A stretch of 32,000 nucleotides of DNA from Syntrophaceae bacterium (GTDB taxonomy: Bacteria; Desulfobacterota; BSN033; UBA1163), in the NCBI GenBank assembly GCA_013388645.1, contig JACAEV010000143.1:1-32000 (forward strand). The letters run 5' to 3'. Shown here in pieces: positions 1 to 20,704 of the stretch. The translations under genes and the position numbers were made by a program. The notes below the pieces were generated by a model. That model saw only the letters and a list, made by a program, of their open reading frames with translations, did not search any database and was not told the DNA's origin. Position 1 is the first letter of the stretch, and each line of letters begins with the position of its first letter.

Positions 1-306
1 GAACTTTCCGGTGGGCAGCAAAAAATCTTAGAATTAGCTCGCATTCTCATGTTTGATCCAAAAATGATTCTTCTTGACGAACCTTTTGCTGGGATTCATC
101 CTCTTCTGAGAACCAAATTTCACGAAATGATTCTGACTCTTCACAGAAAAGGGACGACCTTTATCTTGGTCAGTCATGATCTTCCTTCGCTCTATCTCCT
201 GTCTTCGAGAATCATTGTTCTCGACAATGGGCGGAAAATTGCGGAAGGTTCAGCAAGGGAAATCCAGAAGAATGAGGCTGTTATTGAGGCCTATCTGGGG
301 AGATAA
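1..306 (+). CDS. livG: Branched-chain amino acid-type ABC transporter ATP-binding protein (LivG-like), 5' end cut by the window edge
   Basis: Frame 1 is open from base 1: ELSGGQQKILELARILMFDPKMILLDEPFAG (ABC signature LSGGQ plus Walker B LLDEP), H-loop VSHD, and a C-terminal EAYLG tail typical of LivG. Stop TAA at 304-306. Confidence 0.85.
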   Translation, partial: ELSGGQQKILELARILMFDPKMILLDEPFAGIHPLLRTKFHEMILTLHRKGTTFILVSHDLPSLYLLSSRIIVLDNGRKIAEGSAREIQKNEAVIEAYLGR

Positions 307-307
307 G

Positions 308-1036
308 ATGGTGATCCTTGAAGCCAAAGAGATTGAGGTGAGTTACTACGGAGATATTAGCATCCTTCAGGGAGTAAACCTCTCCGCAGAAGTATCAAAG
401 ATCACCGCTATCATTGGCCCGAATGGTGCAGGAAAATCAACCCTTCTTAAAACACTCTGTGGGTTCTTAAAACCCAAGAAGGGCAAAGTCTTCCTCCGTG
501 GTCGGGAGATTACAGGGGTTCAGCCTCATACGTTGATGAGTATGGGACTCTCTTACATTCCTCAATATAATAGCCTTTTTCCGGACCTTACCGTAAAAGA
601 AAATTTAGAATTGGGTGCTTGGACATTCCGGAAAGATCATAAGCGCATTCGAGATGGGATAGAAAAGGTTTTCCAGAGATACCCTTTTCTGAAAGAGAAA
701 GCCTCCACCAAGACGACGAAGCTAAGTGGAGGACAGCAGCGTATCCTTGAGCTGGGTAGAACCCTCATGGGGTCTCCAGAGGTGCTTCTTCTTGATGAGA
801 TCACTGCAATGATTGCTCCAATCGTTGCAAAAGAGATATATCAGGATATTGAAAATCTTTCAAAAGAGAAAATAACCGTTGTCATGGTTGATCAAAACGT
901 CCGGCAGGTCATTGAGATTTCGGACTATATTTTTATTCTGGAACTCGGGAAGAACAAAGTGAGCGGAACGAAGGAAGAATTTAGCGGACGACTAAAAGAT
1001 GTCATTCAGGATTGGTTAGTATACGAAAATGTGTAG
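308..1036 (+). CDS. livF: Branched-chain amino acid-type ABC transporter ATP-binding protein (LivF-like)
   Basis: ATG at 308 lies 1 nt after the upstream stop. Walker A GPNGAGKST, signature LSGGQQRILELGR, Walker B LLLDE. The ORF-track start at 176 overlaps the upstream gene and is unsupported. Confidence 0.85.
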   Translation: MVILEAKEIEVSYYGDISILQGVNLSAEVSKITAIIGPNGAGKSTLLKTLCGFLKPKKGKVFLRGREITGVQPHTLMSMGLSYIPQYNSLFPDLTVKENLELGAWTFRKDHKRIRDGIEKVFQRYPFLKEKASTKTTKLSGGQQRILELGRTLMGSPEVLLLDEITAMIAPIVAKEIYQDIENLSKEKITVVMVDQNVRQVIEISDYIFILELGKNKVSGTKEEFSGRLKDVIQDWLVYENV

Positions 1037-1106
1037 AGGGAAGGAGGTGAATGTCTAAATCATTTTACAAATTTGATAAGTGACAAATACTCAAAGAAAG
1101 GGGGTC

Positions 1107-2363
1107 ATGATCATGGTTGAAAAAAAGATCTTTTTCTGGGCTATGGTTCTTTTCGTCTCAACACTTGCCTTCTCATCGGTAGATTCCTATTCAAAGGATC
1201 ATATCGTGATAGGAACAACCATCTCAACAACAGGAAGCTTTACTTTTGCCTCCTCTCAAGGTTTCAAGGGCCTCCAGGTCTGGGTGGATGATGTGAATAA
1301 GCGAGGAGGAATCTTTGTCAAGGAGTTTAACAAAAAGCTCCCGGTCAAACTCGTCTATTATGATGATCGAAGTGACAAGGAAACGGTTGTAAAACTTTAT
1401 GAAAAATTAATCACGGAGGACAAGGTTGATATTGCTTTTGCTCCTTTTGGATCCACTCTCACAGGGGCTGCTGCCGCCATCACGGAAAAATTTGGGCGTA
1501 TGTTGATCATCTGGTCTGCCGCAGCCGATGCCGTCTATGAACAGGGTTATAAATACATTGTCTCTGCAACCGAGGTACCGAACTCCCTCATGCCTAAGCC
1601 AGAAGTCGAACACATGGCTGCCCTAGGTGTAAAAAAGATGGCTGTCATCTATTCGGATGAGCCTTTTACGGCCGGTATGGCTCGGTTTGCCAAAAGCATT
1701 GGGGAGAAGTTGGGAATGACTGTTCCCATTTTTGAGAAGTACTCCCCGGGGACAAAAGATTTTACCATCCTGCTCCAAAAGGTTCAGGCTTCAAAACCGG
1801 ATGCATTCTATGCCTCAGCTTATATGGATGACCTCAAGAATATACTTCGCCAAATGCGAGAATTAAACGTTATGTTCAACTATGTGTATATGGTCTATTC
1901 TGGAATGCCCCAATGGTTGGATTTGGGAGACGAAGGCCTTTACATTTTTGGACACACCCTTTTCCATGACGATTTAAAGTGGAAAGTGAACGCGGGGATG
2001 GATCTGACACAATTCGTAGCCCACTTCAAAACCCTTTTCCCCAGATCAGAATATCCACCCGATTTTCAGACCTCATTGGCTTATGGGGCTGGAGTGATTT
2101 TAGAAGAAATGATTAAAAAGGCCGGCACACTGAACGCCAAAGATTTGAAGCAAGCGGCAATTGATTTTTCTGGAAAGTTGACTGTGATGACAGGACCTTA
2201 TGAAATCGATTCAACAGGAAAACAACTCCAGATGCCCTTCACAGTGACTCAGGTACAAAAAGATAAGACCACGGGAAAATTGAAATTTATTCTCCTCTGG
2301 CCTAAGGCAGTGGCAACAGGTGAACCGGTGTATCCGATCCCCTCATGGGATAAAAGAAAATAA
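1107..2363 (+). CDS. ABC transporter substrate-binding protein (type 1 periplasmic binding fold, LivK/Leu-Ile-Val-binding family)
   Basis: ATG at 1107 follows AAAGGGGG. The N-terminus has a hydrophobic signal peptide (IFFWAMVLFVSTLAFSS). The IVIGTTISTTGSF...GFKG pattern is typical of the family, and the gene follows livG/livF. Confidence 0.85.
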   Translation: MIMVEKKIFFWAMVLFVSTLAFSSVDSYSKDHIVIGTTISTTGSFTFASSQGFKGLQVWVDDVNKRGGIFVKEFNKKLPVKLVYYDDRSDKETVVKLYEKLITEDKVDIAFAPFGSTLTGAAAAITEKFGRMLIIWSAAADAVYEQGYKYIVSATEVPNSLMPKPEVEHMAALGVKKMAVIYSDEPFTAGMARFAKSIGEKLGMTVPIFEKYSPGTKDFTILLQKVQASKPDAFYASAYMDDLKNILRQMRELNVMFNYVYMVYSGMPQWLDLGDEGLYIFGHTLFHDDLKWKVNAGMDLTQFVAHFKTLFPRSEYPPDFQTSLAYGAGVILEEMIKKAGTLNAKDLKQAAIDFSGKLTVMTGPYEIDSTGKQLQMPFTVTQVQKDKTTGKLKFILLWPKAVATGEPVYPIPSWDKRK

Positions 2364-2367
2364 GGAA

Positions 2368-2413
2368 ATGCGGATAGGCCGACTGAAAGAGGTTGGTCTA
2401 TCCGCATTATTAT
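2368..2413 (+). terminator. Rho-independent terminator after the ABC binding-protein gene
   Basis: 10-bp stem ATGCGGATAG (2368-2377) / CTATCCGCAT (2398-2407), followed by a T/A-rich tail (TATTATTAAAAAA). Confidence 0.6.
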
Positions 2414-2514
2414 TAAAAAATTTCTAAGATGGCCAATTAAGAAATCTGATTGTTGGTTTTCGACGGAAATAATTTCAGAAGGATATTTTAAAAGCCTTTT
2501 GAGGAGGAAAAGCC

Positions 2515-3015
2515 ATGGCAAATCGAGAACAACTTCTTGATGAAATTTCTGAACTGGCTCTTATGAATGATATGAACTACCTTGGTTGAACGCAAGCGGT
2601 TCTTGCAGCCCTGCAAGAAAAGCTAAATATTGGAAGTAAAGAGGTCTTAAAAGCCGGAAGTGCCCTGGCCGGTGGTGTAGCCAGGCAGGGAGAAACTTGC
2701 GGTACACTTATGGCTGCTATTATGGCGATCGGCTCCTTGGTTGGCAGAGAGAGGTTTGAAGATTTAGACCAATACCGGAAAGCGATAGGGATAGCAACCA
2801 AGGTTTACGAGCTTTTTAAGGAACGGATTGGACATACCCTTTGCTGGGAGATTCATAAAATCCGATATGGGAAGGTTTATCGACTCTTCATTCCAGAGGA
2901 ACATGAAGCTTTCCACAAAATGGGTGGCCATGGCTGCAAGGGGTGTCCAGAGGTATGCGGCATTGCAGCCAAGATCGCCGGTGAGATCATCCTTGATATC
3001 AAAGAAAACCAATAA
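2515..3015 (+). CDS. C_GCAxxG_C_C family putative redox protein with an in-frame TGA (2587-2589) at the first conserved Cys position; candidate selenoprotein
   Basis: ATG at 2515 sits 6 nt after GAGGAGGA. The frame is continuous with ORF 2710..3015 apart from the one TGA. Family blocks present: G-[TGA]-TQAVLAAL, GGVARQGETCGTLMAAIMAIG, LCWEI, GCKGCPEVCGIAAKIAGEII. The internal ATG at 2710 lacks an SD and would remove half the domain. Confidence 0.6.
2595..2624 (+). promoter_or_regulatory. SECIS-like stem-loop downstream of the in-frame UGA
   Basis: AGC/GCT closing pairs, a 2x2 internal loop, an 8-bp stem TTCTTGCA (2600-2607) / TGCAAGAA (2612-2619), and apical loop GCCC (2608-2611) 21-24 nt from the U of UGA. 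Confidence 0.4.
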
Positions 3016-3088
3016 AAAATGAGACTACACGGTAGCCCCGAATTTATAGGTTGTGTTTAATGGAAATTTAATAATGAAAATCTCATTT

Positions 3089-3188
3089 ACCCCGTATAAT
3101 CCCAAAAGCCTCAGCCTTCAGGGCGAAGGCAATTTCAAATCTAAGGGTGAAGACAAGCCCTGTCTTTTAGCACAGGGAAATACGGGGT
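3089..3188. other. About 100-nt three-way-junction fold in a convergent intergenic region (unclassified structured element)
   Basis: Closing 9-bp helix ACCCCGTAT (3089-3097) / ATACGGGGT (3180-3188) encloses hairpin GCCTTC-agggc-GAAGGC (3114-3130) and hairpin CCCTGT-cttttagc-ACAGGG (3158-3177). No T-run follows on either strand. Confidence 0.25.
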
Positions 3189-3866
3189 TCACTTTGTAGC
3201 AGCCATCTCTTTTTTTAACGCTTCGTATTCATCCAGAAAACCCCATTTTTCTATCAACCAATTCGTTCGAGCTTCACTATCCATTCTCTTAAATAAGCTG
3301 GCTTCGGCATCAGAGAGGATTTGAAAAATCTGTTTAATTCCAAAATCGTCAGAGGCTAACGTGCGGGCCACCTCATAAGCAATCATCCCCATATTGGCCA
3401 AACTCTTTTTTTGAAATGACCTCTGGAACAAAACAATCCGGAGGGTAAATTCATCTCCGAGACCGGTTGGTTCCTTCTGATCTCCCCCATGGATGAGATT
3501 CAAAACGGTCCGGGAGATCGGAATGGTTAAATTAGAAGACACCGAATCTTTTGGAAGCTCATAAAACAAGAGGAGATTTTTAAAAAAAATGGAACCGAAG
3601 GGTGAGCTGTAAACTCGGCTCAGAAATGTCAATAAACAGGACCCCAATTCATTCGAGAGGACATGAGAATGGTCAATAATCTGGGCAATCAAATTCTGCT
3701 TCCTCAATTCATCCTGTTCTCTCTTTTCTGCCTCAAGCTGTTTGCTCGTCCGTAAACAATCCCGAATCTCGTCGCAGTTTCGGCATTCGGGCTTGGTCTG
3801 GGTGATGGTTTGTCCGTCCTTTAAGATGATCTCTTTAATTGACCCAAAACAATCTTTTTTTTCCAT
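3189..3866 (-). CDS. Hypothetical protein (225 aa) with an N-terminal Cys cluster
   Basis: Long ORF with no competing frame. The N-terminus carries C-x21-C-x2-C-x5-C (CFGS...CRNCDEIRDC) and is followed by a coiled-coil-like Glu/Lys segment. I recognise no family. Confidence 0.55.
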   Translation of the reverse strand: MEKKDCFGSIKEIILKDGQTITQTKPECRNCDEIRDCLRTSKQLEAEKREQDELRKQNLIAQIIDHSHVLSNELGSCLLTFLSRVYSSPFGSIFFKNLLLFYELPKDSVSSNLTIPISRTVLNLIHGGDQKEPTGLGDEFTLRIVLFQRSFQKKSLANMGMIAYEVARTLASDDFGIKQIFQILSDAEASLFKRMDSEARTNWLIEKWGFLDEYEALKKEMAATK

Positions 3867-8862: not shown

Positions 8863-9012
8863 TCAAAAATTTAAGAAAATATTAATTTCTTCAATCTCGT
8901 CACCCATGCGAAACCGGTAATCCTGTTTGCTGACATCGTTCTGGACTCCTGATTCCGTAGAAGTGACAGTCCTTAAACTTTTTACGACTCCACTATAATG
9001 TTTAATTGTCAT
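8863..9012 (-). CDS. Candidate 49-aa small ORF whose ATG overlaps the glmU stop codon (ATGA)
   Basis: Minus-strand ATGACAATT..., where TGA is the glmU stop. Product: MTIKHYSGVVKSLRTVTSTESGVQNDVSKQDYRFRMGDEIEEINIFLNF. Not low-complexity, but no recognisable family. Confidence 0.2.
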   Translation of the reverse strand: MTIKHYSGVVKSLRTVTSTESGVQNDVSKQDYRFRMGDEIEEINIFLNF

Positions 9013-10163
9013 AAATCCTTCTTGCCCCTCGATCTTTTTCGGCGGGGCTCTATTTTTTTACCCCGACCCCGTACTCTGGTCCCTCGACCGGAGCTGAACC
9101 TCTCGACCTCCATGAACTTTCCGACTTTAGCCTTGGCCTTAACCTTGTTTAGGGGTCTCAGGTGAGCAAAAGGACCAATGGAGGTGCGCTCATCAATTGT
9201 GCTCTCGGTGATCACAGAGTTTGCATGGATAGTCACCTCATTGCCGATGATGGAATCTGAAACCTTTGAGTGGGGTTCGATAATGCACCGTTCACCGATC
9301 TTTGTCTTTCCTTGAAGCACACAGAAGGGGTAGATGATCGTATCTCTCCCCACCTGTACTATTTTTTCTACATAGGTGTTTAGGGGATCGATGACCGTTA
9401 CACCGGAGAGCATCAACTTGCTTAATTCTTGCTGTCTCAGCCTTTCATTTGCCATGGCAAGATCGACCCTTGTATTAATCCCCATCACCTCCATAGGATC
9501 TGTCACTTTATGAGCCGAACACCTCAAGTCTTTCTCCCTCGCAATCCCAACCAAGTCGGTCAGATAATATTCCCCCTGAGCATTCTCTTTCCCGATATCT
9601 CTCAACCCCTCCTTTAAGAAGGGAGCTTTGACACAATATATCCCTGTATTGATCTCCCGGATCAGCCTCTCTTCATCTGTAGCATCTTTTTCTTCCACAA
9701 TCTTTTCCAACCAACCCGCTGGGGTTCGGAGGACACGACCGTATCCAAAAGGATTTTCCACAACCGCTGTCAACACAGAGAGAGTGGACTCATTCTCTCT
9801 ATACATATCGATAAAAGAGCGGAGAGTCTCCACTGTCACCAAAGGGACATCTCCGCAGAGGATTAAGACCGAACCATCAAATTCCTGAAGAGAGGGGATG
9901 GTTTGTAAGACCGCATGCCCCGTTCCGAGTTGCTCCTTCTGAATGACAAACTCAATTGGAACTCCTTTAAACATTTCCTGAATGCGATCCGCCTGGTAAC
10001 CCACCACTACAATGGTCTTTTTGGCTTTAATCCCATTCAAGGAGAGATCTATGGAATAAGAGAGCATGGGAAGTCCCAGAAGCGGATGAAGAACTTTTAC
10101 CATTTCCGACTTCATCCGGGTTCCTTTCCCCGCTGCAAGAATAACGGTAACGATATCTTCCAA
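9009..10163 (-). CDS. glmU: GlmU-like UDP-N-acetylglucosamine pyrophosphorylase with a C-terminally truncated acetyltransferase beta-helix
   Basis: TTG start after GAGGGA. Uridyltransferase motifs LAAGKGTRMKS, QLGTGHA and EYYLTD are present. The LbH domain follows but stops at ...VGKFMEVERFSSGRGTRV and is then replaced by a 21-aa Arg/Lys tail. Total length is 384 aa, versus roughly 450-460 for canonical GlmU. Confidence 0.85.
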   Translation of the reverse strand: MEDIVTVILAAGKGTRMKSEMVKVLHPLLGLPMLSYSIDLSLNGIKAKKTIVVVGYQADRIQEMFKGVPIEFVIQKEQLGTGHAVLQTIPSLQEFDGSVLILCGDVPLVTVETLRSFIDMYRENESTLSVLTAVVENPFGYGRVLRTPAGWLEKIVEEKDATDEERLIREINTGIYCVKAPFLKEGLRDIGKENAQGEYYLTDLVGIAREKDLRCSAHKVTDPMEVMGINTRVDLAMANERLRQQELSKLMLSGVTVIDPLNTYVEKIVQVGRDTIIYPFCVLQGKTKIGERCIIEPHSKVSDSIIGNEVTIHANSVITESTIDERTSIGPFAHLRPLNKVKAKAKVGKFMEVERFSSGRGTRVRGRGKKIEPRRKRSRGKKDL

Positions 10164-10607
10164 ACTGTTCCCTCAATCCCGAAAGAAATTATGACTGACT
10201 ACCTGAAGTGGAGACTATTTCACAATCATTTCCAATGGTATGCCCCACACGGCTAAAATTTAATCAGGGTTTATTAATAAATTTGATAATATATACAATA
10301 CCCTATACCTTTAGTCAACCTTGTGAAATATTTGGAGCACCAATTGGTTTATTCTTTTTTATCGAATGATTCCAAAATGGCCAACCCTTCAGACCTCCAG
10401 ATAATAAAAAATATTGATACCCTTTTAATAAGAAGGCAATATTGTGACGTGTTGTAATGATTTAACCAAAATCATTGAGGTTCGGCTGCTTTGGAGAGGT
10501 TTAAAAAAGAAGACCAATTAATTTTAATAAATTATTGAAAAATCTTCGATATTGATTTAAAAATAGAATTTATAAAAATTCTTATCGGCATTTTTGGGGA
10601 GGAAAAA

Positions 10608-16274: not shown

Positions 16275-16289
16275 GGATTTTGTATTTAT

Positions 16290-16470
16290 CGGTGGTATCC
16301 AGGTCAAGGGAACCCCGTAATCTCTGTTTAGATGGAGAGAGTCGGGGACGGACCCGCCGCTGTATTTGGGGACGAAACTTGCAATCAGCCACTGTCCTGT
16401 GCTGAGCGCAGGATGGGAAGGCGCAAGGATTAGGAAGATCCGAAAGTCAGAAAACCTGCCTGGATATTCT
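16290..16470 (+). promoter_or_regulatory. Cobalamin (B12) riboswitch
   Basis: AAGGGAA (16306-16312), ACCCGCCGCTGTA, GCCACTG (16388-16394) and B12-box AGTCAGAAAACCTGCC (16445-16460). P1-like pairing TATCCAGG / CCTGGATA. It lies upstream of a TonB-dependent receptor. Confidence 0.85.
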
Positions 16471-16516
16471 TCACGGAGTAGTCTTCGAGGATAAGACGGT
16501 GAAGGGTGCAAGCGGG

Positions 16517-16558: not shown

Positions 16559-16666
16559 AAACCCTTCCTTCGGCCCTGAACCCTATGGGGTTCAGGGTCC
16601 ATTGTGAATCCGAGCGGGTTCACACAAACTATTCATGGACCCCATGATGGGTCGAGGAGGTGTGCT

Positions 16667-18697
16667 ATGAAACGTTTTGTTCTGCTCATCACTTTATTCA
16701 TGCTTCTCATTTCGATCCCTCTCTCACTCCCTGCTCAGGAAAAAGAAGTGACGCTCGAGCCCGTTGTGGTCACGGCTATTCGAGATGTCCAAGAAATCAG
16801 AAAAGTCCCAGCCAATGTCACAATGATCACCAGAGAGGAAATAGAACGATCAAATGCAAAAACGGCAGTGGATTTATTGAGGAGCGAGGTAGGCGTCACG
16901 GTCCGTGATTTTACAGGGAATGGGAAAACGGCATCAGTGGACATCAGAGGTTTTGGCGAAACAGGTCCTCTCAATACCCTTGTTTTAGTCGATGGAAGAC
17001 GGGTCAATGAGATCGATCTCAGTGGAGTGGACTGGACTCAGATCCCTGTTGAACAGATCGAGCGAATTGAGATTCTCCGCGGATCGGGTAGCGTTCTATA
17101 TGGAGATAATGCAGTTGGAGGTGTGATCAATATCATTACTCGAAAACCAGAAAAGCCTCTCTCTTTCAGGACGGAAGTGACAAGGGGAAGCTACCTCTAC
17201 CATAAAGAGAGCGGCTCTGTCTCTGGAAAATGGGGTCCACTCTCGGCAATCTTCTACGGAGGTTACAGCTCCTCCGAAGGGTACCGCGAAAATGGTTTTT
17301 TACGTTATAAGGATGTCGGAGGAAAAATCTTCTATGACCTCAGTGATGCTGTCCAGTTTTCCTTTACTGGAAATTTCCATCGAGATGATAGTGGATTTCC
17401 AGGAGCCCTTTCTAAGTTGCTCTACGAATTGGACAGACGGACCACCACCAAACCAGATGATAAGGCCGAGACCGATGACGGTTTTTTAACATTTGGAGTC
17501 AAAGCCAATTTGGGGAATATGGGCCGGTTTGAAACCGATCTCTCCTGGCGGCATCGGGAGGTCACCAATTCCTTTCTCTCTTCCCTTCCCACCTCCTCTT
17601 TCAAAGACAGGAGAAACCTGACCACCTGGGGATGGGCTCCAAAATATATTCTCGAAAAGACCCTGGTTGGACATTTCAATAAGATCATTTGTGGACTCGA
17701 TTATTATCACTCCGGTTCAAAGATCGACTCGGAATCATATTTCTTCGGTTCAACTACTTATGATGGAATCGAGACGACGAAAAAGTCCTCCGGTCTATAT
17801 CTTTTAGATGAGTTTTCCATTTTTGAAAACCTGATCTTATCTCTTGGCGGACGATGGGAGTGGGTCACCTATGACATTTCTCAAGACTTAACCGGAGTCA
17901 AGGATCGAAAAAGAGATTCAGAGCCTGCTTGGAATGTAGGCCTCAACTACCTCTTTGCCAAAGGGTCTTCTGCCTTTATCTCCATAAAACGAAGTTTTCG
18001 ATTCCCTGTCACGGATGAACTCACTCAGTACGTCTTTCGGCCACCTGATTTTCAACCTGAGATCCAAATCAACCCAGCGATGAAGCCACAGACCGGTTAT
18101 CATTACGAAGCGGGAGTCCGATATCTCTTCAAAGATTGGATGGAGGGAAATCTCACCCTTTTCTGGATTGACCTCAAAAATGAGATTTTCTACAATCCGG
18201 ATACATTTACCAATGAAAATGCAGAAAAAACAAGACGTCAGGGGGTCGAGGTCGGACTCCGAGTGAAACCCTTAGAATGGCTTAACCTATGGGGCAATTA
18301 TGGTTATATCCGTCCCCTCATGCGGGGAGGTGCTTTTTCAGGAAACGATATTCCTAATGTCCCAAGACATAAAGGTTCCATTGGAGCGGATCTGAATTTT
18401 GAAAAGATATTCCTGAATGAATATTTGAAAGGATTTTCGATCAATGGAAGGGCCAATTTTATTGGTTCCCGCCGTTTCATCAGCGATTGGGCCAACCAGG
18501 TGGAGAAACTGGATCCTTACTACACGTTCGACGCAAAACTTTCATATTCCTGGAAAGGACTGAAAGCATTTGTCGGAGTTAATAACATCACTAATCAGAA
18601 ATATGCAGAATACGGCGTGCTCAATTTCTTAAAACAGCCCTATTATTATCCCTCTCCGGAGCGAAATTTCTTCGGAGGGATCTCATATACCTTTTAG
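16667..18697 (+). CDS. TonB-dependent outer-membrane receptor (BtuB-like, cobalamin/corrinoid uptake inferred from the riboswitch)
   Basis: ATG at 16667 follows GAGGAGG. Signal peptide MKRFVLLITLFMLLISIPLSLPAQ. TonB box/plug region EPVVVTA...ERIEILRGSGSVLYGDNAVGGVINIIT. C-terminal beta-barrel ends in ...FGGISYTF (terminal aromatic). Confidence 0.9.
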   Translation: MKRFVLLITLFMLLISIPLSLPAQEKEVTLEPVVVTAIRDVQEIRKVPANVTMITREEIERSNAKTAVDLLRSEVGVTVRDFTGNGKTASVDIRGFGETGPLNTLVLVDGRRVNEIDLSGVDWTQIPVEQIERIEILRGSGSVLYGDNAVGGVINIITRKPEKPLSFRTEVTRGSYLYHKESGSVSGKWGPLSAIFYGGYSSSEGYRENGFLRYKDVGGKIFYDLSDAVQFSFTGNFHRDDSGFPGALSKLLYELDRRTTTKPDDKAETDDGFLTFGVKANLGNMGRFETDLSWRHREVTNSFLSSLPTSSFKDRRNLTTWGWAPKYILEKTLVGHFNKIICGLDYYHSGSKIDSESYFFGSTTYDGIETTKKSSGLYLLDEFSIFENLILSLGGRWEWVTYDISQDLTGVKDRKRDSEPAWNVGLNYLFAKGSSAFISIKRSFRFPVTDELTQYVFRPPDFQPEIQINPAMKPQTGYHYEAGVRYLFKDWMEGNLTLFWIDLKNEIFYNPDTFTNENAEKTRRQGVEVGLRVKPLEWLNLWGNYGYIRPLMRGGAFSGNDIPNVPRHKGSIGADLNFEKIFLNEYLKGFSINGRANFIGSRRFISDWANQVEKLDPYYTFDAKLSYSWKGLKAFVGVNNITNQKYAEYGVLNFLKQPYYYPSPERNFFGGISYTF

Positions 18698-20130: not shown

Positions 20131-20529
20131 TTAAGCAATCTTTTTTGCTGTCATGCCCGGTTTAACAGAGTAGACCTCTCCAATTCTAATCTTTATTACG
20201 TATTGGGGCCGGGGCCTTTTTCTTTGCTCCTGCCTTTTGGCTACTTGTTCAAAGAAATCTCCACTGCTACATATTTCTGCCGTCCCCTTAACCTGATAGC
20301 CATCTGCCTTCTCTCTGTCCGCCACCATTACCGCAACTTTTGGGTTCTCCTGAAGGTTTCTAAGCGTCTTTTCGCTTGTTCCTTCCGAGTAGGCAAGCGT
20401 TTCATCATTGAAGACATACATGGAGCCCTTAGGCCCTACATTAGGTGTTCCATCTTTACTTGCTGTAGCAATAACAGCTAACTGCTGTTCAAACAGAGCC
20501 TTCATTTCGTTGGTCAATTTAGCCATCAC
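20131..20529 (-). CDS. Pyridoxamine 5'-phosphate oxidase family (FMN-binding split-barrel) protein
   Basis: About 130 aa. ATASKDGTPNVGPKGS...LRNLQENPKVAVMV...GYQVKGTAE follows the pattern of the PNPOx-like family. Confidence 0.8.
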   Translation of the reverse strand: MMAKLTNEMKALFEQQLAVIATASKDGTPNVGPKGSMYVFNDETLAYSEGTSEKTLRNLQENPKVAVMVADREKADGYQVKGTAEICSSGDFFEQVAKRQEQRKRPRPQYVIKIRIGEVYSVKPGMTAKKIA

Positions 20530-20704
20530 ATCCTCCTTTCATTCTTCACTTGAAATCTTGGATGATAAGAAGGGAATATGTCTGAACATTTTCAGATCAT
20601 CCAATCAATTTATAGAATCATCTTTAGCCTTTATTTTAAATGAAGTCTATTAAATTAGATACAGGGTGTCAATGAAAATTGGGAGGGCGAAGTTCGGTAA
20701 AAAG

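Follow-up and report, generated by a model that had tools for sequence, protein, structure and literature searches.

The gene at positions 2515-3015 of the window, by which we mean the whole 32,000-nucleotide stretch of DNA analysed here, very probably encodes a 166-residue selenoprotein of the PF09719/TIGR01909 family, with the UGA codon at 2587-2589 decoded as selenocysteine (Sec) at residue 25. By direct reading, the frame begins at ATG 2515-2517 and ends at a TAA stop (3013-3015); it translates as MANREQLLDEISELALMNDMNYLG*TQAVLAALQEKL... and is interrupted by one internal stop only. The coordinates that the initial annotation had given for the Shine-Dalgarno (SD) sequence, the ATG, the TGA, the TAA and the frame are all exact, base for base. 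From this interval, the program-made list of open reading frames contains only 2710..3015, a product of 101 aa that is also present in a public protein set as P0043. No SD is seen ahead of ATG 2710 by direct reading, as had already been remarked of this alternative start, and its truncated product is missing Cys62 and scores below the Pfam cutoff. The features of the locus are collected in Table 1.

Table 1. Features of the predicted selenoprotein locus and its immediate surroundings, in window coordinates.
Feature	Position	Strand	Basis or remark
LivF-like ABC ATPase	176-1036	+	upstream, same strand
Periplasmic binding protein	1080-2363	+	upstream, same strand
Shine-Dalgarno GAGGAGGA	2501-2508	+	direct reading; 6-nt spacer to ATG
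Selenoprotein CDS (very probable)	2515-3015	+	166 codons, Sec = codon 25; PF09719/TIGR01909 scores; full-length orthologs
UGA, very probably read as selenocysteine, residue 25	2587-2589	+	family's first conserved Cys
Predicted bSECIS hairpin	2595-2624	+	MFE fold; pairing conserved in Sec forms
Cys62 codon, GETCG motif	2698-2700	+	invariant column, alignments A1 and A3
101-aa ORF of automatic callers	2710-3015	+	truncation artefact; without Sec25 and Cys62
Cys110 codon, GHTLCWEIH	2842-2844	+	invariant column, alignments A1 and A3
Cys144-x3-Cys148, GCPEVCG	2944-2958	+	both columns invariant within subfamily
GC-rich hairpin between convergent genes	3021-3039	.	terminator-like on - strand; 6 nt past selenoprotein TAA

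Family membership and predicted structure

With Cys put at residue 25, PF09719 gives the 166-residue protein 70.3 bits (cutoff 27), in an alignment that begins at residue 25 (profile position 3). The full-length protein likewise scores 50.0 bits against TIGR01909 (cutoff 47.4), for which the curated NCBIfam name is "C-GCAxxG-C-C family (seleno)protein". Both scores uphold the C_GCAxxG_C_C family originally proposed for this gene; the 2710 ORF alone reaches 24.8 bits on PF09719, which is below the same cutoff of 27. The four conserved Cys positions of the family are all filled (U25, C62, C110 and C144), the last three being the later conserved blocks recognised from the outset, all of which are present. 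Distant family members keep Cys144 only and not Cys148, and the subfamily described here differs from these distant PF09719 members both in this second Cys of the last motif and in an extra N-terminal helix of ~24 residues.

Within the subfamily, the window protein has several residues of its own. Its glycine-rich CGAxxG motif is a variant, CGTLMA, versus the ortholog consensus CGALTG, and a Thr (2704-2706) stands at Ala64, a position that is invariant in 36/36 compared orthologs. An extra Cys141 (2935-2937) is found where most orthologs have Arg (GHGCKGC versus GHSRKGC). Membership in two other families was rejected, namely the DVU_1555 family (NF045669; 35.8 bits against a cutoff of 103) and the HUGP/GUXX-star fusion selenoprotein (NF045501; 30.2 bits against a cutoff of 325).

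An AlphaFold2 model (m5ace892f1ac8) was built on the Cys ortholog P0003, which is 77% identical; it is of high confidence (pLDDT 94.9, pTM 0.91) and consists of eight helices. In this model, residues 25, 62, 110 and 144 each lie at the N-terminus of a helix, a predicted placement compatible with a redox centre of the selenol/thiol type or with a centre that binds metal. Foldseek returned no fold relative of the model among 350,542 PDB chains (best E = 1.2, TM < 0.35), and no PDB relative was found by sequence, so that structure offers no functional lead. For the family as a whole there is no solved structure.

Orthologous codons and the downstream hairpin

A protein search over 5.8 billion proteins gave 519 matches, which fall into two length classes. 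One class spans the whole query (~166 residues) and comprises full-length orthologs that are 62-86% identical, and the other (128-135 residues) begins just past the Sec position. Among the full-length proteins, the 24 N-terminal residues are conserved and the Sec column is either C or W. The W in P0001 is an artefact, as its DNA has TGA followed by the same hairpin. Entries with Trp at the Sec site (P0001, P0002, P0005 and others) derive from short contigs in which TGA was translated with an alternative code, while those truncated to 128-135 residues and beginning after the TGA include P0014, P0022, P0029 and P0030, among others. In all, ~4/5 of the members of the ortholog group in public collections are wrong, being either truncated to 128-135 aa or given Trp at the Sec site, and two conserved redox/metal-ligand positions are thereby hidden.

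A scan of the GTDB representatives, a single genome for each species, found 80 loci from phyla that include Thermodesulfobacteriota (with Syntrophales), Methylomirabilota/NC10, Nitrospinota, Tectomicrobia and Omnitrophota. For the 63 loci that cover the position, the aligned codon is TGA in 49, TGT in 10 and TGC in 4. Every non-TGA ortholog has Cys as the aligned residue, with no case of Trp or Gly, and this includes all the archaeal members. The initial annotation had located the TGA at the family's first conserved Cys, which these counts bear out (TGY in 14/63 loci, TGA in 49/63), with both codon types occurring at the aligned site across related genomes.

Conservation also extends upstream of the TGA. 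The 5' 24 codons, to which the initial annotation had tied its reading of the gene, are conserved in the orthologs, all of which have an SD and an ATG of their own: GGAG or AGGAG is found at the matching place before an aligned ATG that lies ~24 codons upstream of the TGA. In 48 sequences, the first, second and third positions of the 20 codons before the TGA have entropies of 0.80, 0.56 and 1.40 bits, respectively, and stop codons occur in this stretch in 0/48. This third-position variability shows the upstream 24 codons to have the pattern of coding sequence.

Two further observations concern the distribution of the UGA. A distant family member from a Dehalococcoidaceae MAG (L070:~10001-10423, 28% identity) has TGA at the first Cys (YGSUAQSTVL), and Sec at the first Cys thus recurs beyond the subfamily studied. 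Separately, L053:2875-2922 (binned as Tectomicrobia) and L057:9-56 (binned as Omnitrophota) have almost identical nucleotides over the UGA and the hairpin, which could be the result of horizontal transfer or of mis-binning.

The hairpin that follows the UGA has outer pairs AGC/GCT (2595-2597/2622-2624), a stem of 8 bp (2600-2607/2612-2619) and the loop GCCC (2608-2611), and in each of these parts it is as first described. It is the minimum-free-energy (MFE) structure of 2587-2640, at -14.3 kcal/mol. The region after the TGA agrees with the published criteria for bacterial SECIS (bSECIS) elements (PMC13188914) in its apical loop (4 nt, with 3-9 nt in the model), its upper stem (8 bp; 4-16 bp), the presence of G within the first two loop positions (here the first), the UGA-to-loop spacing (18 nt; 16-37 nt) and the MFE of the hairpin alone, 2595-2624 (-13.3 kcal/mol; <= -7.5 kcal/mol). 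On its own, the hairpin is weak evidence and stands out only modestly: the z-score is -1.86, 13/200 shuffles fold as well, and a model-fitting hairpin follows 31 of the 1378 TGA trinucleotides in the window (2.2%). A permissive Rfam scan gave no match to a SECIS family, only chance snoRNA matches.

Covariation was assessed in 47 Sec-form sequences in a gap-free alignment. Standard pairs make up 91.1% of cells, a share that falls to 40-49% once the 3' partners are displaced by 1-3 columns. At pair 15-32, 36 sequences have U-A and 9 have G-C, a compensatory change that also replaces Glu with Ala; G-C is found chiefly within the NC10 clade, and the number of independent compensatory events is therefore possibly small. 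Pairs 17-30 and 21-26 display only Watson-Crick/G-U alternation. The covariation score is 0.202 versus 0.157 when shuffled, a value reached by 0/500 shuffles, which ignore relatedness.

The wobble sites distinguish the two forms of the gene. In the Sec forms, those in the stem and loop are 78-100% conserved (sites 18 and 27 at 100%, site 24 at 94%), with the exception of site 30, where G or A stands opposite an invariant U and the pair is kept. Wobble sites outside the hairpin in the same Sec-form sequences are mostly 46-58% conserved, and in the Cys forms, the same wobble sites as in the hairpin are 29-64% conserved. The mean MFE is -10.2 kcal/mol in the Cys forms versus -14.9 kcal/mol in the Sec forms, and most Cys forms that encode VLAALQE have lost the hairpin via synonymous changes. 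Judged from these alignments, the hairpin is under nucleotide-level constraint in the TGA forms only. Two Cys forms, L027:354-401 and L035:1910-1957 (TGT and TGC), retain a complete SECIS-type hairpin, as would be expected if Sec was recently converted to Cys and a 'fossil SECIS' remained.

Alternative readings, decoding and gene neighbourhood

A recent nonsense mutation would likewise leave a lone in-frame stop in a gene that is intact elsewhere, and the window copy does have unusual substitutions (A64T and R141C). That the gene is a nonsense-mutated pseudogene, or that TGT or TGC was turned into TGA by an error of sequencing or assembly, is nevertheless extremely improbable given that 49 species-level genomes, spread over several phyla, have TGA at this very codon, that the frame is conserved on both sides of it, and that the hairpin is constrained only in the TGA forms. 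An error had been expected to reveal itself as TGT or TGC in the reads; L081, a Logan assembly of run SRR10095362, matches window 1-3267 at 100% identity, TGA included, although it may share reads with the window. We also consider it very unlikely that UGA 2587 is a true stop, in which case the locus would encode a 24-residue leader peptide and a shortened protein from an internal start, such as ATG 2710. Automatic callers report just such products, of 101-135 aa, here and for most orthologs, but their internal starts vary between orthologs and the SD is absent before 2710. Moreover, the segment between the TGA and the callers' starts, TQxVLAALQEKL, is conserved as protein and is contiguous in the Cys forms, and the 2710 product would be without two conserved Sec/Cys positions and below the Pfam cutoff.

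The remaining alternative is that TGA has been reassigned to Trp or Gly (code 4 or 25), or that it is passed by near-cognate read-through without Sec machinery. Several database entries do have W at the TGA codon, but these are short metagenomic contigs in which the DNA reads TGA, and the non-TGA orthologs have neither Trp nor Gly at this site. Within the window, TGA serves as the stop of 10 of the 28 genes, which contain 81 TGG codons and a single in-frame TGA, that at 2587-2589. Simple read-through, moreover, would need no conserved hairpin at SECIS distance. Neither version of this alternative has more than a minute chance of being correct, and decoding of the UGA as Sec is the reading that we adopt. 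No other TGA-interrupted gene in the window was convincing; the candidate at 20131-20604 (-) proved to be an ordinary gene with its start after the TGA.

By analogy with the established bacterial pathway, from which these steps are borrowed, the hairpin at 2595-2624 would recruit SelB-GTP-Sec-tRNA(Sec) as the ribosome nears the UGA, through a loop that has G first and lies 18 nt past the UGA. SelB would then deliver Sec in competition with release factor 2, and the mature product would be an all-helical protein of ~18 kDa. None of selA, selB, selC and selD is found within the 32-kb window, where the only tRNA is tRNA-Phe, and 40 related loci contain no tRNA-Sec. Both Thermodesulfobacteriota and Methylomirabilota have been described as rich in selenoproteins. 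Because the source organism is found only as fragments of SRR10095362, it is from the conservation pattern and the lineage that we infer its genome to be Sec-competent.

The two genes at 176..2363, upstream of the selenoprotein gene, are the final two of a cluster that reaches back beyond the start of the window. L081, which reaches 5.2 kb further upstream, has the order partial M20 peptidase, glutamine-synthetase (GlnA)-like gene, MR_MLE enzyme, two permeases, two ATPases, binding protein and selenoprotein gene, with all genes on one strand. No promoter-like site was found on the + strand in the 151-nt gap at 2364-2514, which makes co-transcription with the upstream genes likely, and the selenoprotein gene is probably the last to be transcribed with this Liv-type ABC transporter cluster. 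Gene context varies among the orthologous loci, and neither Liv-type genes nor DUF169 is universal: Liv-type transporter genes recur in ~6 loci, DUF169 (PF02596, COG2043) adjoins the gene in 9 loci, archaeal Cys forms included (L004, L005, L007, L013, L015, L060, L062, L063 and L064), and the closest ortholog, L001, has 0 neighbours in common with the window. The pairing of DUF169 with the C-GCAxxG-C-C gene is nonetheless recurrent, and both families are uncharacterised. The largest neighbour cluster (27 loci) was discarded, as its members are false antisense ORFs that overlap the gene where the genome is GC-rich.

Elsewhere in the window, a cobalamin riboswitch at 16284-16477 (+) (Rfam RF00174, 84.6 bits) immediately precedes the ORF of a TonB-dependent outer-membrane receptor at 16604-18697 (+), an ordinary BtuB-type arrangement. 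A GlmU-like ORF at 9009-10163 (-), part of a glmS-glmU / glmM-nagB-like amino-sugar cluster, stops at just 384 residues, with a Lys/Arg-rich tail (...GRGTRVRGRGKKIEPRRKRSRGKKDL) in place of the expected remainder of the acetyltransferase domain, which may be due to a frameshift or a truncation.

Relation to catalogued selenoproteins

PF09719 is listed among the prokaryotic selenoprotein families in a 2022 review (PMC9312934) and is given two entries, 'form 1' and 'form 2', in a 2026 review (PMC13188914), which trace to Zhang & Gladyshev 2007 (PMC1976440; 'putative redox protein', Olavius delta-1 symbiont) and 2008. Form 1 is represented by MGD8741185.1 and form 2 by WP_012158890.1. The texts of those papers do not state which Cys bears Sec in either form, and the family is absent from the Haft 'eight selenoprotein families' preprint and from the BSepDB paper. 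Sec-containing members of PF09719 are already catalogued, since 2007/2008, which lowers the novelty of the finding and leaves its correctness unaffected. The finding is correct, well supported and ordinary, as one instance of a catalogued selenoprotein family, and it raises no new biological question since the family has been listed for so long.

Like the catalogued C-GCAxxG-C-C selenoproteins, the window gene belongs to the same Pfam/NCBIfam family, would have Sec in place of a conserved Cys with a SECIS just downstream, and comes from a selenoprotein-rich host lineage, Thermodesulfobacteriota. Orthologs are also found in Desulfobacterales/Desulfobacteraceae MAGs (L038, L042, L052 and L054), the group to which the Olavius delta-1 symbiont presumably belongs. 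The hairpin resembles E. coli fdhF-type and consensus bSECIS elements in being in frame, right 3' of the UGA, with a small loop that has G first, and it agrees with the consensus in spacing (18 nt), stem (8 bp) and energy (< -7.5 kcal/mol). The E. coli fdhF SECIS has a bulged U in the upper stem, whereas the hairpin here has none. The loop is also unlike that of the consensus, as its pattern is GCYY (GCCC in the window) rather than the commoner G[G/U] (bSECISearch; Fig. 2A of PMC13188914).

The Cys orthologs, L023 and L037 among them, offer a further close comparison to the window gene. The bacterial Cys forms P0003-P0061 (e.g. P0003 and P0004) are 62-77% identical, and those from archaea (L055-L064) are 38-44% identical. 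Both have the same length and conserved residues as the window gene and VLAALQE over the hairpin region, but they have TGT or TGC for TGA, and the hairpin is mostly lost.

We think it unlikely that these sequences form a Sec-position subfamily of their own within PF09719, a third one beside the two catalogued forms, with the Liv/DUF169 placement hinting at an undescribed selenium-dependent step. The features of such a candidate subfamily are Sec in place of the first Cys (G-U-[TS]-Q), the extra N-terminal helix and a fold for which no relative has been solved, and a near-identical SECIS is common to Thermodesulfobacteriota, Methylomirabilota, Nitrospinota and other phyla. The main value of the finding is in correcting the annotation, in that the true product would be a protein of 166 residues with Sec25 and not the 101-residue ORF, and the locus makes it probable that its host uses selenium.
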